The position numbers and the translations under genes were made by a program. Below the pieces are notes generated by a model. It saw only the letters and a program-made list of their open reading frames with translations, had not been told where the DNA came from and did not search any database. A stretch of DNA of 64,000 bases. It comes from Marinicella sp. (GTDB taxonomy: Bacteria; Pseudomonadota; Gammaproteobacteria; Xanthomonadales; Marinicellaceae). Location of the stretch: assembly GCA_965230295.1 (NCBI GenBank), contig OZ246001.1, forward strand, positions 544,001-608,000. The letters run 5' to 3'. Shown here one piece after another: positions 59,016 to 62,211 of the stretch; positions within the stretch are counted from its first letter, which is position 1, and each line of letters starts with the position of its first letter.

Positions 59016-59747
59016 TTATGCTTCAGGTCGGGCATAAAGCTGTTCGGCACGTTGATAGAGCACCCAGGAAGTAAAAATATACTTGTCATTAGAGACGGGC
59101 ATATTCCCCCTGTGGGTATGGGTAAACCCGGCTGGTGCAATCACCAATGACCCTTGCTTCGGCTTGGTGACCAATTGTTGGTGGTAAAATTCTGTTTCAC
59201 CACCCTCCTCGACATCGTTTAAATAAAACATCCACAACAGTTTACGATGTAGGGCATCATTGGGCTGGTCATTCGGATGAGGGTAAATTTCAGAATGGTA
59301 GTAAAAATAACCACCTTCATTTTGCTTGTACTTTTGGATGTTGATTGAGCCCAAACGGAACACAGTTTGGATCAATCGCCCCAATGATTGGTCATTCAAT
59401 TTAGGGATGTCAACGTATGATATTTGTTCAACACCATCAGGTGTCTGAACTTGTAAGGCAATGGAGCCAACCAAAGAAAACGGGTACTTCCTGACATAGT
59501 GTATCAGACCTTGGAGCACCACATTTTGCAACTGTTCAATTTCCTGCTGCCACTCCTTTGAATGGGTGATGGTGATGTCAGAACTGTTTTTCTTGATCAA
59601 GTCAACGCCATGCCCTGTTCTACCTTTGTGACGCTCATTACTTTGTTCAAACTTTTGGATACATTGTTGACAAAACTCAGGGCTTAATGCCCCTTCATAA
59701 ATTTCTATAAATTGACTCAAATAAAATTCCGCTTTATAAAACCACAA
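59016..59747 (-). CDS. 2OG-Fe(II) oxygenase
   Basis: YYHSE, WMFYLNDVEEGGETEF, FTHTHRGN, KYIFTSW. Confidence 0.88.
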   Translation of the reverse strand: MWFYKAEFYLSQFIEIYEGALSPEFCQQCIQKFEQSNERHKGRTGHGVDLIKKNSSDITITHSKEWQQEIEQLQNVVLQGLIHYVRKYPFSLVGSIALQVQTPDGVEQISYVDIPKLNDQSLGRLIQTVFRLGSINIQKYKQNEGGYFYYHSEIYPHPNDQPNDALHRKLLWMFYLNDVEEGGETEFYHQQLVTKPKQGSLVIAPAGFTHTHRGNMPVSNDKYIFTSWVLYQRAEQLYARPEA

Positions 59748-59829: not shown

Positions 59830-60699
59830 TCATGCAGCAACACATTTATTCTTGCCATTGCTTTTGGCTTTGTACAACGAGCGGTCTGCCCTTTTGATGG
59901 CATCCATGATCGGTTCATTCTTTTTCTTCTGGCTCACACCCAGACTGACAGTCATCGCATGGTCACCCATGGCAAGCGGCAGCTTGATATCGGCGACAAC
60001 TGCACGTATTTGCTCCGCAAACTCAATGGCCTCATTCATATCACTGCCCAACATACAAATGGCAAACTCTTCGCCCCCCCACCGTCCTATGACTTGATTT
60101 TTACCCATCATTTTCATCAAGCTTTGACCCAAGTTGGCCAAGAATTTATCTCCTGATAAATGACCCAAAGTATCATTGATTCTTTTAAAATCATCCAGGT
60201 CAGCAATAATAAATGACAACACCAACCTTTCTTCGGCTGCCTTCTCACTGAGGGCTTCAAATTTTTTCAACATGCCACGGCGATTGTACAAACCAGTTAA
60301 TTCATCTGTAAACGCCTGGCTTTCCAGTTTTGAGTTGAGGTTACCGTATTCCACAATCCATTTATTGATACCAATAAACAGCAGCACGAACCCAGAAAAC
60401 AAAGTGGCCTTTTCAGCCACAGCTGTATACATCTCACCATGTAAATGAAATTGGTCTAACCCATCTACATACATGGAGGTGAAGACCAACAGAAAACCAT
60501 AGTTCAAATAGTTATAAAAATCTTTACCGCTTAAACTACCAATCAACAAGAACATCACGACAGCCATCAAAGCAAAGGCGAATTCAAAGACTACATTATA
60601 AATTCTGACATGGTCGACTGCGGGAAGGTAAACTGCATCATATACCGCAAATGCGACGATGATTAACAACAAAGTAATTACTTTATTAATATAAGGCAT
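59830..60699 (-). CDS. Membrane-bound diguanylate cyclase (start uncertain: 60699, 60738 or 60765)
   Basis: ~4 TMs; TDELTGLYNRR, DLDDFKxINDxxGHxxGD, RWGGEEF. Confidence 0.9.
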   Translation of the reverse strand: MPYINKVITLLLIIVAFAVYDAVYLPAVDHVRIYNVVFEFAFALMAVVMFLLIGSLSGKDFYNYLNYGFLLVFTSMYVDGLDQFHLHGEMYTAVAEKATLFSGFVLLFIGINKWIVEYGNLNSKLESQAFTDELTGLYNRRGMLKKFEALSEKAAEERLVLSFIIADLDDFKRINDTLGHLSGDKFLANLGQSLMKMMGKNQVIGRWGGEEFAICMLGSDMNEAIEFAEQIRAVVADIKLPLAMGDHAMTVSLGVSQKKKNEPIMDAIKRADRSLYKAKSNGKNKCVAA

Positions 60700-60916
60700 A
60701 ACAAACACACAACCCAGGTATGTTTGAATAAACGGCATTGCTCGCTCACCCACACATACACACACATTTAAAACACACCAGTCATTCTAACCCGAAATAC
60801 AGACCGATTACCTGAGCCACAAGGTAAAGATTGGTATTATTTAGTTTGTTTTGGCAAAAAAATGCCATTTGGTATTATTTTAGGGGTCAATTTTTAACAA
60901 AGTTCTGAATTTTGTC

Positions 60917-60946
60917 AAAAAAAAAGGCGTCAAATAGATGACGCCT
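60917..60946 (-). terminator. Intrinsic terminator of the putative sRNA
   Basis: Minus strand AGGCGTCA-TCTATT-TGACGCC-T9. Confidence 0.9.
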
Positions 60947-61118
60947 GAAGTATTTCGCTGAGGAAGAGGGAGGAAAACCTCAGCTATTTTTTGTATGTGC
61001 TTGGCACATACGTGAAATCTTGCGATTTCGGGGAACAATGAAAATTGTTACATTCCATTTTACTTGTCTAACATGAATATAATGTGAATTAGGTTGGCCT
61101 AATTGAGCCATTTATTCT
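60917..61118 (-). ncRNA. Putative unannotated sRNA (~200 nt) with anti-SD loop, divergent from the GcvA-like LysR
   Basis: Six perfect hairpins; GCAA tetraloop; loop UUUUCCUCCCUCUU; terminator with U9; TACTAT -10 candidate at 61124-61129; 5' end estimated. Confidence 0.7.
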
Positions 61119-61293
61119 GCTATATAGTACGTTTGATGTGTTTTCAAAGTAAAAGTTCAAATAATTTTGATTTATTGAAATTTATTTAAACACTCGTTTG
61201 AATCACTCTTATTGCGGTATTTTACTTATCAACAACACTTTGACAAGCTAATTGTTTTTGTTATTCGGATAAATTATACTAATGCGAAACACC

Positions 61294-62211
61294 ATGGCCA
61301 ACCAATACAGAAACATACCTCCACTCAGATCAATCAAAGCTTTTGAGGCTTCAGCGCGCCTATTAAGCTTTACCAAAGCCGCAGAAGAATTACATGTTAC
61401 GCAAGCTGCCATCAGCCATCAAATCAAAAACCTCGAACAGCTCACCGGGGTTCAGTTATTTGAAAGGTTCAACCGGTCTTTGAAATTGACCTTCGAAGGA
61501 CGCTTGTATTTGATCTCGATCAGAAATGCCCTTGAGAGCATTGAAAAGGCCACCAGGCAGCTCAAAAACAAAGACGCATCAGGCACCTTGAATATATCGG
61601 TGCTGCCATCTTTTGCCTCCAAGTGGCTGTCAAAAAGGATTTGGAAGTTTCAACAACAACACCACGAATTGGACGTGAGGATTTCTGCCTTTGAGAAACT
61701 GACCGATTTCAAAAAAGAAGAATGTGACATTGCCATTAGGTATTCCTCAGATCCCACACTTCCCGGCTTAACGACCGAATTACTGCTAGAAGAAGACGTT
61801 TTTCCAGTTTGTTCTAAAAAATTGTACGACTCTTATAAGGGAAACATCAAACCTGAATCCTTGCTCAGAGCCAATCTTTATCATGAAGATTTCACCACCG
61901 AAGACTGGCATGACTGGTTTGATGCGGTTGGCATACAAGCCAATCCAAATTTACGTGGTACCCGGTTCAGTCATATGGCCATGATGCTAGAAGCGGTAGA
62001 AAACCACCAAGGATTTGCTTTAGGAAGGACACCTTTGGTGCAAGATGACATCAAGCGCGGGCTTTTGGTGGCACCTTTTGATGTGAAAATTAAAGGCAAA
62101 ATGTCTTACTACTTGGTCTACCCCAGTTCCACAGAGAATGACCAAAAATTACAGATAATCAGACAATGGCTGTTTGCTGAGGCCGACCAATTTAAACAAG
62201 GTATTCAATAA
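61294..62211 (+). CDS. LysR-type regulator, GcvA-like
   Basis: PPLxxxxAFEAxARxLSFTKAAEELHVTQAAISHQIKxLE; SFASKWL; DIAIRY. Confidence 0.88.
   Translation: MANQYRNIPPLRSIKAFEASARLLSFTKAAEELHVTQAAISHQIKNLEQLTGVQLFERFNRSLKLTFEGRLYLISIRNALESIEKATRQLKNKDASGTLNISVLPSFASKWLSKRIWKFQQQHHELDVRISAFEKLTDFKKEECDIAIRYSSDPTLPGLTTELLLEEDVFPVCSKKLYDSYKGNIKPESLLRANLYHEDFTTEDWHDWFDAVGIQANPNLRGTRFSHMAMMLEAVENHQGFALGRTPLVQDDIKRGLLVAPFDVKIKGKMSYYLVYPSSTENDQKLQIIRQWLFAEADQFKQGIQ

Follow-up and report, generated by a model that had tools for sequence, protein, structure and literature searches.

The 64,000-nt window analysed here is taken from contig OZ246001.1 of the Marinicella sp. assembly GCA_965230295.1 (positions 544,001 to 608,000), and the element under study occupies the space between a minus-strand gene for a GGDEF diguanylate cyclase and a plus-strand gene for a LysR-type regulator (Table 1). 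An earlier note, made from the letters of this DNA, had proposed that the space holds a small RNA (sRNA) with five hairpins, an exposed CU-rich loop able to pair with Shine–Dalgarno (SD) sequences and a strong terminator, divergent from a GcvA-like LysR gene and overlapped by a 43-codon open reading frame (ORF). Read on the minus strand, all five hairpins, the CU-rich loop, the terminator, the divergent gene and the ORF lie at the coordinates given in that note. The comparison with relatives shows that the element is an RNA gene on the minus strand which ends at the intrinsic terminator at 60946–60917. A terminator scan placed the sole intrinsic terminator downstream of P0, the outermost of the promoters predicted on this strand, at 60946–60925, and the sequence conservation among relatives stops at its T-run. 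The conserved core comprises about 135 nt and consists of a single-stranded 5′ motif (S1), three hairpins (H1, H2 and H3) and the terminator.

Table 1. Features of the RNA gene and its divergent neighbour, numbered from the first letter of the window
Feature	Position	Strand	Description
Longest predicted transcript	60917..61212	-	About 296 nt, reaching from the putative start of P0 through the U-run of the terminator
LysR-type T-N11-A box	61264..61288	.	TTCGCAT-N11-ATCCGAA in minus-strand reading; conserved block in the 20-locus alignment
P0, sigma-70-type promoter	61219..61246	-	TTGTCA (61246-61241), 16-nt spacer, TAAAAT (61224-61219); predicted, promoter scan
P1, sigma-E-type promoter	61132..61158	-	GAACTT (61158-61153), 16-nt spacer, TCAAA (61136-61132); predicted
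Predicted start of P1	near A61125	-	RNA of about 209 nt
Variable leader of the P1 transcript	61090..61124	-	Includes TACTAT, the beginning of the 43-codon ORF and the greater part of hairpin 61104-61087
P2, tentative promoter	61057..61088	-	TTCAC (61088-61084), TTCAT (61077-61073), TAAAAT (61062-61057); start near 61050, RNA of about 134 nt
S1, single-stranded 5′ motif	61030..61044	-	UUUUCAUUGUUCCCC; near-invariance in the alignment
H1 hairpin	61014..61029	-	GAAAUC-GCAA-GAUUUC; covariation
H2 hairpin, length variable	60993..61011	-	GTATGTGC-CAA-GCACATAC; covariation
H3 hairpin	60957..60984	-	GCTGAGG-TTTTCCTCCCTCTT-CCTCAGC (RNA stem GCUGAGG/CCUCAGC); invariant loop UUUUCCUCCCUCUU at 60977-60964
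Intrinsic terminator	60917..60946	-	AGGCGUCA-UCUAUU-UGACGCCU, 8-bp stem, U8 tail; terminator scan
Hairpin AATTAGG-CCAA-CCTAATT	61104-61087	-	Species-specific
Hairpin AACAAT-TTTC-ATTGTT	61049-61034	-	Direct reading; 5′ arm not conserved
TACTAT hexamer	61129-61124	-	Direct reading
43-codon ORF	61111-60980	-	ORF list
Divergent LysR gene, GcvA subfamily	61294..62211	+	NF008352; presumed regulator of P0

The core folds with a free energy of -43.4 kcal/mol (z = -9.0), a value that none of 200 shuffled sequences equalled, and the longer stretches of 211 nt and 296 nt, the latter being the longest predicted transcript, gave z-scores of -7.5 and -6.9, respectively. Across 26 distinct sequences, 98.6% of the cells in the four helices are paired and 22 of the 29 base pairs show compensatory changes on both sides; in the controls, all 500 shuffles stayed below the observed value on every measure and slid partners paired in 32–53% of cells. 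Changes on both sides affect all six pairs of H1 (97.4% of cells paired), seven of the eight pairs of H2, whose loop accepts insertions of up to about 20 nt, four of the seven pairs of H3 (100% of cells paired) and five of the eight pairs of the terminator. The G-U pairs in all of these helices are compatible with the minus strand only. The changes in the H3 stem were also seen by direct reading, which in other genera gives GAUUUAGG/CCUAAAUC, CCGGUGAGG/CCUCACCGG or GCCGAGG/CCUCGGC. The orthologous intergenic regions contain a covarying structured RNA that displays the CU-rich loop on a covarying stem. Conservation does not extend to all five hairpins first listed, as the hairpin at 61104–61087 falls in a stretch that is variable or absent in relatives and the 5′ arm of that at 61049–61034 is not conserved, whereas H1, H2 and H3 are kept. 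A conserved fold of the 5′ leader was rejected, the individual folds of 20 leaders being heterogeneous and weak.

Two stretches remain near-invariant amid changing surroundings, namely the 14-nt loop of H3 and the 5′ single strand UUUUCAUUGUUCCC. The core of the loop, CCUCCCUCUU, is unchanged in four other genera, where only the 5′ U-run varies (UUUU, UUUUU or UUUCU). S1 is the reverse complement of GGGGAACAAUGAAAA, which is composed of an SD-like run, a spacer, AUG and AAAA. Its segment TTCATTGTTC is invariant in 19 of the first 20 loci, locus L006 reading TTTATTGTTC; the motif is retained in genus g18, and the version in genus g17, UUUUUUUCAUUAUUUUCCC, still combines an anti-SD sequence, an anti-AUG and a U-run. 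From these properties we infer that the H3 loop, the invariant CU-rich loop of the earlier note, is an anti-SD motif and that both motifs are antisense to ribosome-binding sites, so that the RNA most likely pairs with translation-initiation regions.

Sequence searches delimited the distribution of the element. BLASTN recovered the region in 21 of 23 genomes of the same genus and in the single genome of a second genus, and had no match in 16 genomes drawn from 11 further families. Eight sequences and four helices went into a covariance model, which matched 15 of 17 family members, one of these matches (G054) covering the terminator only, and none of 133 genomes from 11 other families of the order. 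When the model was run across the family, it matched 19 of 20 genomes of g1 (the miss being a 76%-complete genome), the one genome each of g2 and g65, all three of g18 and, weakly, three of 15 of g17. On reading, G165 and G158 (g17), G163 and G103 (g18) and G162 (g65) contain true divergent copies; the terminator-only match in G054, also of g17, is not a copy. An exact scan for the H3 motif in one genome each of 185,579 species returned 22 loci, comprising 16 labelled Marinicella or Marinicellaceae, five in metagenome-assembled genomes assigned only at higher ranks and one chance match, L031, which lies in GC-rich, coding-looking sequence on a contig labelled Spirochaetaceae. Among the genomes searched, the element is specific to Marinicellaceae and occurs in five genera of this one family.

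Comparison with Rfam returned no match at the gathering score across the whole window, in agreement with the novelty proposed in the earlier note. The best sub-threshold match on the element was suhB/mmgR (RF00519), with 20.2 bits against a cut-off of 41 and an E-value of 0.14 in a search of 801 nt, and it rests solely on the CU motif and the terminator. When the same 801-nt region was searched at E-values up to 10, only chance-level matches appeared, and neither GcvB nor an AbcR-type family was listed. The GcvB model (RF00022, gathering score 42 bits) had no match in the whole genome and none above the cut-off in 121 genomes of the order; the order's only match to it, L296 (G116:C68:4585-4728), is sub-threshold at 28.8 bits and belongs to a genome of another family. 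GcvB is defined by its GU-rich single-stranded seed region R1, and direct reading of the RNA and the alignments found no GU-rich seed region, the invariant stretches being CU-rich or U-rich only. The RNA fails the model tests and so falls outside GcvB, AbcR, MmgR and every other Rfam family. A full-text literature search found no relevant sRNA literature on Marinicella. The element is accordingly described as a new family within a known kind of regulator, in which the RNA gene is solidly supported and the regulation and targets are predictions.

Three promoters, P0, P1 and P2, are predicted on the minus strand because conserved hexamers stand at fixed spacing around spacers of variable sequence. 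P0 lies back-to-back with the lysR promoter; its TTG and TA-AAT positions are invariant in all 20 loci, its spacer is free of gaps and variable in sequence, and it also occurs in the distant genera. In P1, both blocks are conserved in the 20 loci around a spacer of 15–16 nt and variable sequence, and a relaxed form of the pattern is found in 26 of 26 loci. A study of Escherichia coli (PMC1312014) gives the sigma-E motifs as GGAACTTTT and (T/C)GGTCAAAA, with a preferred spacing of 16 nt and an A/T-rich upstream region. GAACTT-N16-TCAAA in P1 agrees with the resulting consensus, GGAACTT-N16-TCAAA, and in one clade P1 reads TGGTCAAAA exactly. It also resembles the motif upstream of rpoE in these genomes (12 of 12 from g1 and g2), and the genome encodes one RpoE above the family cut-off and an Hfq that also exceeds its own. 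In the rpoE loci compared (L043 and L263–L286), that motif lies about 35 nt before the reading frame. Its usual form is GAACT(A/T)-N17-TCCAA in Marinicella, and the majority of g17 and g18 genomes have AAACTT-N16-GTCA(T/A)A; a sigma-E-type motif in this place suggests that rpoE is autoregulated in the family.

P2 is tentative. Its blocks are separated by no gaps in the 20 loci, the -10 element follows the pattern TAnAAT after 10 nt of variable sequence, and the direct repeat TTCAC-N6-TTCAT, with a period of 11 bp, stands at a fixed distance of 10 nt before it. The arrangement, which is present in g2 and not evident in g17, g18 or g65, recalls promoters activated by response regulators of the OmpR/PhoB type, and P2 could instead be an RNA element. 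The hexamer TACTAT, offered as a -10 element in the earlier note, is present at its place but is not supported as a promoter, since it falls in the non-conserved stretch at 61090–61124, where indels reach about 45 nt and the sequence shows no conservation. Two further marks were noted nearby. Between P0 and P1, a near-dyad, ATTCAAAC-N4-GTTTAA (61185–61205, minus strand), is kept in most close relatives (L001–L012) and absent from more distant clades. Between the RNA terminator and the GGDEF gene, the scans flag two features at 60851–60878, a promoter-like TTGGCA-16-TATTAT on the plus strand and a terminator-like hairpin of small size, TGGCAAAAAAATGCCA; this stretch is not conserved among relatives.

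The divergent LysR protein scores 329.6 bits against the cut-off of 288 for the NCBIfam GcvA subfamily and is the only protein of the genome above it. It is the divergent neighbour of the RNA in all 20 loci and in G024, G103, G162, G163, G165 and G158, the proteins of the last five being 54–64% identical to the host LysR, so that the divergent arrangement described in the earlier note holds in every locus examined. A T-N11-A dyad with at least six of seven symmetric positions is found in 17 of 26 loci, from five genera, and in all 17 it is centred at -65 relative to the start predicted for P0. In some species, C and G are swapped on both halves of the box (TTCGGAT/ATCCGAA and TTCGCAT/ATGCGAA). 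LysR-type activators typically bind near -65, and a box at this distance from a conserved, RNA-facing sigma-70-type promoter makes LysR control of P0 plausible. The lysR mRNA looks almost leaderless: a -10-like TATACT (61275–61280, plus strand) precedes the ATG at 61294 by about 13 nt, and no SD sequence is present. This TATACT sits inside the N11 spacer of the box, and an upstream in-frame ATG at 61282 forms part of a box half-site, a layout of 61264–61294 that suggests autorepression of lysR by occupancy of the box.

Hints of expression came from metatranscriptomes. Five runs contained about 4% of the sampled words, and four of these, from four studies, were used as contigs with at least 80% likeness; parts of the element left uncovered by these contigs carry no meaning. 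The contigs cover the RNA at 90–95% or below 90% likeness and are therefore copies of relatives. Contig X1 extends for 163 nt over 60945–61104 and X4 for 152 nt over 60948–61089, X3 spans 228 nt over 60943–61045 and 61132–61172 with the variable stretch replaced, and X5 covers 61007–61088 with 101 further letters upstream. Three contigs, from three studies, end in the terminator stem at 60943–60948 without loose ends, and none of the four passes clearly beyond the terminator or beyond the predicted P0 start. Together, these contigs are a weak hint that the RNA is expressed in relatives. Their upstream reach exceeds the start predicted for P2; should the contigs derive from RNA, longer transcripts made from P1 or P0 would therefore exist.

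Collectively, these observations make it moderately probable that the element is a trans-acting regulatory sRNA gene, restricted to Marinicellaceae, with seeds directed against ribosome-binding sites and with tandem predicted promoters, one associated with a LysR box and one of sigma-E type. Such an RNA would pair, probably with Hfq, with the translation-initiation regions of several mRNAs, where it would block ribosome entry and lower expression through translational repression at start sites. Transcription would begin at P0, under the LysR box at -65, and at P1, with P2 as a possible third promoter under a response-regulator-like direct repeat. Forms of about 296, 209 and 134 nt would result, and processing of the long form to the core is equally possible. 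The RNA would in this way combine a LysR-sensed signal with envelope stress. The element has the general features of Hfq-type sRNAs, including a stand-alone gene, a terminator with a U-tail, predicted promoters of its own, an Hfq gene in the genome and two invariant pyrimidine motifs that are accessible for pairing.

Several observations weigh against this interpretation. The alignments used for covariation were fitted to the covariance model, which biases the counts towards structure; the rewritten H3 stems, read straight from the sequence, act as a counterweight. Half of S1 can form a weak 6-bp hairpin in the host genome. The three promoters and all start sites are predictions from comparison, and three tandem promoters for one sRNA would be unusual. 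The metatranscriptome contigs, which come from relatives, show neither the strand nor true ends, could reflect DNA carry-over and were read without a silent control stretch, and X3 runs through the P1 promoter.

The target searches belong on the same side of the balance. They were crude, relying on seed-only RNAduplex energies for the seeds S1 and S2 against 3,445 home-called genes. At ≤-15 kcal/mol, start regions of the host genome modestly outnumber internal windows (24 versus 8 for S1, 13 versus 6 for S2), and no near-perfect complement of either seed occurs at a real gene start in that genome. In-register pairing of S1 at start codons is only 2–2.5 times that at internal AUG or GUG codons, an enrichment that is generic because it is expected for any start-site-like sequence. 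Signal-peptide-like proteins account for 49% of the S1 matches at ≤-14 kcal/mol and for 26% of the remaining genes; this difference, which is due to MK starts, vanishes when MK-start genes are compared among themselves. By Pfam assignment, the top 40 predicted targets are functionally mixed and include NarH, two DUF1501 proteins, PhoX, cytochrome b and an E2 subunit, with no amino-acid or peptide ABC transporters and no porins among them. In a two-genome test on 2.4 Mb of G024 with 1,155 ortholog pairs, four genes for S1 and one for S2 passed ≤-13 kcal/mol in both genomes, against 0.8 and 0.2 expected. The best two-genome candidate, an RND pump, was rejected, its pairing not being conserved in 27 family genomes. 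In the host genome, 11 contiguous bases spanning the start codon of an OmpA-like gene pair with S1; this pairing is not conserved in five other genomes, where the energies run from -8.0 to -13.6 kcal/mol and the register differs. No conserved target emerged from the one-genome and multi-genome scans. In the host genome, the best in-register complement of S1 lies in the start region of narH, for a NarH-type nitrate reductase beta subunit (G000:C1:3461550-3461566), with 15 of 17 positions paired, 13 of them contiguous, at -18.1 kcal/mol.

Among the competing explanations, those that deny a pairing sRNA gene altogether fare worst. The 43-codon ORF, for which the earlier note had allowed a dual function, does exist and overlaps the RNA, and the plus strand reads GGGGAACA-ATG opposite S1, so that a peptide of 43 residues from 61111 or a plus-strand mini-ORF with an SD and ATG mirrored by S1 might be encoded. 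However, the longer ORF begins in the indel-rich stretch and has no conserved counterpart: an ORF of comparable size occurs in one relative alone, where its N-terminus is unrelated, and ATG-initiated ORFs do not exceed 16 codons in five species. It was rejected as a conserved peptide, and this lack of conservation makes a dual function unlikely. The plus-strand mini-ORF, which varies from three to 26 codons, keeps 'MK' alone and loses its ATG in L006, was also rejected; because it is tiny, unconserved and without ATG in one species, S1 is best taken as an antisense element and not as a coding start. With the G-U pairs placing the structured RNA on the minus strand as well, a dual-function or purely coding transcript is extremely improbable. 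Scarcely better placed is the idea that the element acts in cis, as 5′ leader or attenuator, on the gene for the membrane-anchored GGDEF diguanylate cyclase (59830–60741, minus strand), which lies on the same strand with its start about 175 nt downstream, and for which the terminator could serve as attenuator. This gene is a variable insert, present downstream in 13 of the 20 loci and absent in six (loci L013–L018), the remaining locus being cut short, and the RNA and terminator are unchanged in the six of 19 complete loci that lack it; there, a conserved ORF of 243 residues (orf243, 59016–59747 in the window), with no NCBIfam match, directly follows the terminator. Beyond the T-run the sequence is not conserved, no conserved alternative anti-terminator pairing exists, and S1 and S2 pair weakly with the GGDEF start region (about -10.7 kcal/mol here, weaker elsewhere); across loci, their pairing with the start regions of lysR and orf243 is similarly weak and not conserved. 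A leader function was rejected on synteny and weak pairing and is highly improbable. The want of a conserved mRNA target and the total invariance of the 14-nt loop, which would also suit a protein-recognition site, could point to an RNA that binds a protein or acts as a sponge instead of pairing with start sites. We consider this very unlikely, given that the loop contains no GGA motifs of the CsrA/RsmA-binding kind, that the search for targets was crude, being limited to two genomes, home-made gene calls and duplex energies of the seeds alone, and that both motifs are exactly antisense to SD or start-codon sequence, as in the proven anti-SD seeds of AbcR1 and AbcR2 (PMC8844928).

The remaining explanations accept an sRNA and differ in its circuit. 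A functional counterpart of GcvB, activated by the GcvA-like regulator on glycine or amino-acid supply and repressing amino-acid and peptide transporters through CU-rich seeds, would account for the gene's position beside the only GcvA-subfamily LysR in every locus examined, for the box at -65 from P0 and for the lack of an Rfam GcvB in the host genome and above the cut-off elsewhere in the order; moreover, gcvT is present and no glycine riboswitch was found, so that a GcvA-type circuit is conceivable. Set against this, the RNA resembles GcvB in neither sequence nor structure, no transporter of amino acids or peptides ranks among its 40 best predicted targets, CTAAT, the motif of GcvA sites, is absent upstream of gcvT, the 'GcvA' label rests on one subfamily hidden Markov model only, and the strongest promoter match is to sigma-E, which GcvB is not known to use; such a counterpart is unlikely. 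An sRNA chiefly for envelope stress, of the MicA, RybB or MicL kind, would instead be made from P1 and lower abundant outer-membrane or exported proteins, with the LysR gene incidental or autoregulatory. P1 is indeed the best-conserved promoter, found in all 26 loci and close both to the published E. coli sigma-E motifs and to the motif that precedes rpoE; the sequence mirrored by S1, 'AUGAAAA', is the one with which exported MK... proteins usually begin, and the signal-peptide excess and the OmpA-like pairing described above count in favour. Yet that excess disappears among MK-start genes, the OmpA pairing is not conserved, the seed lies 60–90 nt from the P1 start, whereas MicA and RybB carry theirs at the 5′ end, and the family-wide LysR box and P0 argue that the LysR neighbour is not incidental, which leaves this explanation possible but doubtful. 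The most ambitious extension of the trans-acting sRNA that we favour has a single RNA merging, through tandem promoters, the GcvA-type LysR and sigma-E circuits that enterobacteria keep apart, and acting as a broad brake on the translation of a class of mRNAs, such as those for exported 'MK...' proteins, instead of on a few particular targets. The brake would be applied by the two invariant anti-RBS modules, one of which mirrors an entire start site (SD + AUG + AAA). This extension is quite unlikely; if true, it would be a convergent gammaproteobacterial counterpart of AbcR/GcvB and MicA in one molecule.

The closest likeness of the favoured trans-acting sRNA is to AbcR1 and AbcR2 of Sinorhizobium, Agrobacterium and Brucella, which have the same size (about 115–135 nt) and both end in an intrinsic terminator. 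According to PMC8844928, these RNAs carry two anti-SD motifs, CUCCUCCC in the loop of a hairpin and UUCCCCUC in a single-stranded stretch, and genetic evidence shows that both act on start regions. The same source names the neighbouring LysR-type LsrB as the activator of AbcR1 and RpoH1, an alternative sigma factor, as that of AbcR2. The Marinicella RNA likewise has two pyrimidine-rich anti-SD motifs, CCUCCCUC in the H3 loop and UUGUUCCCC in the single strand of S1, and so matches the two-motif scheme of that source; its gene also stands beside a LysR-type regulator and has a predicted alternative-sigma input at P1, where AbcR2 has RpoH1. By analogy, the two-motif match shows AbcR-like working and not AbcR membership. 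The two differ in that no homology is detectable with Rfam and the family is gammaproteobacterial, not alphaproteobacterial, in that the Marinicella RNA is single-copy and its one gene is predicted to receive both inputs by way of tandem promoters, in the sigma factor, which here would be of sigma-E type and not RpoH1, in the 5′ motif, which here also covers the start codon, and in the lack of an ABC-transporter signal among the predictions. To call the element a non-homologous AbcR analog, as the earlier note did, is therefore apt as regards the two motifs and the LysR neighbour, whereas the repression that it assumed was not established by the target scans.

Other known sRNAs share single traits with it. 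Like the Marinicella RNA, GcvB of Enterobacterales and relatives has a gcvA-type LysR gene as its divergent neighbour, a LysR-type box preceding the RNA-facing promoter and several hairpins before a terminator, but its seeds are GU-rich whereas those here are CU-rich anti-SD sequences, its model does not match, and the Marinicella gene has an additional sigma-E-type promoter and no amino-acid-transport bias among its predicted targets. With MicA, RybB and MicL the element shares a near-consensus, highly conserved sigma-E-type promoter, from which sigma-E dependence is predicted. MicL, a sigma-E-dependent RNA of 308 nt that is processed to 80 nt (PMC4102768), shows that an active sRNA can be the 3′ portion of a long primary transcript. 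These RNAs differ from that of Marinicella in having no homology to it, in that its seed is not at the 5′ end of the P1 transcript and in that it lacks conserved pairing with an OmpA-like mRNA. The alphaproteobacterial MmgR/suhB (alpha-r8) shares a small hairpin, a CUCCC-type motif and a terminator, at a sub-threshold score.

Within these limits, the invariant 14-nt loop and the start-site mirror provide clear handles for mutagenesis, and the covariance model can be used to annotate the family. The results add a well-supported sRNA family without an Rfam match to a marine gammaproteobacterial lineage, in which the AbcR design, with its pair of anti-SD seeds, a neighbouring LysR gene and an alternative sigma factor, has apparently been re-invented by convergence in the genomic slot of gcvB. 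If the predicted LysR-dependent and sigma-E-type promoters are real, Marinicellaceae would offer a compact model of one sRNA that integrates a metabolic signal with envelope stress.

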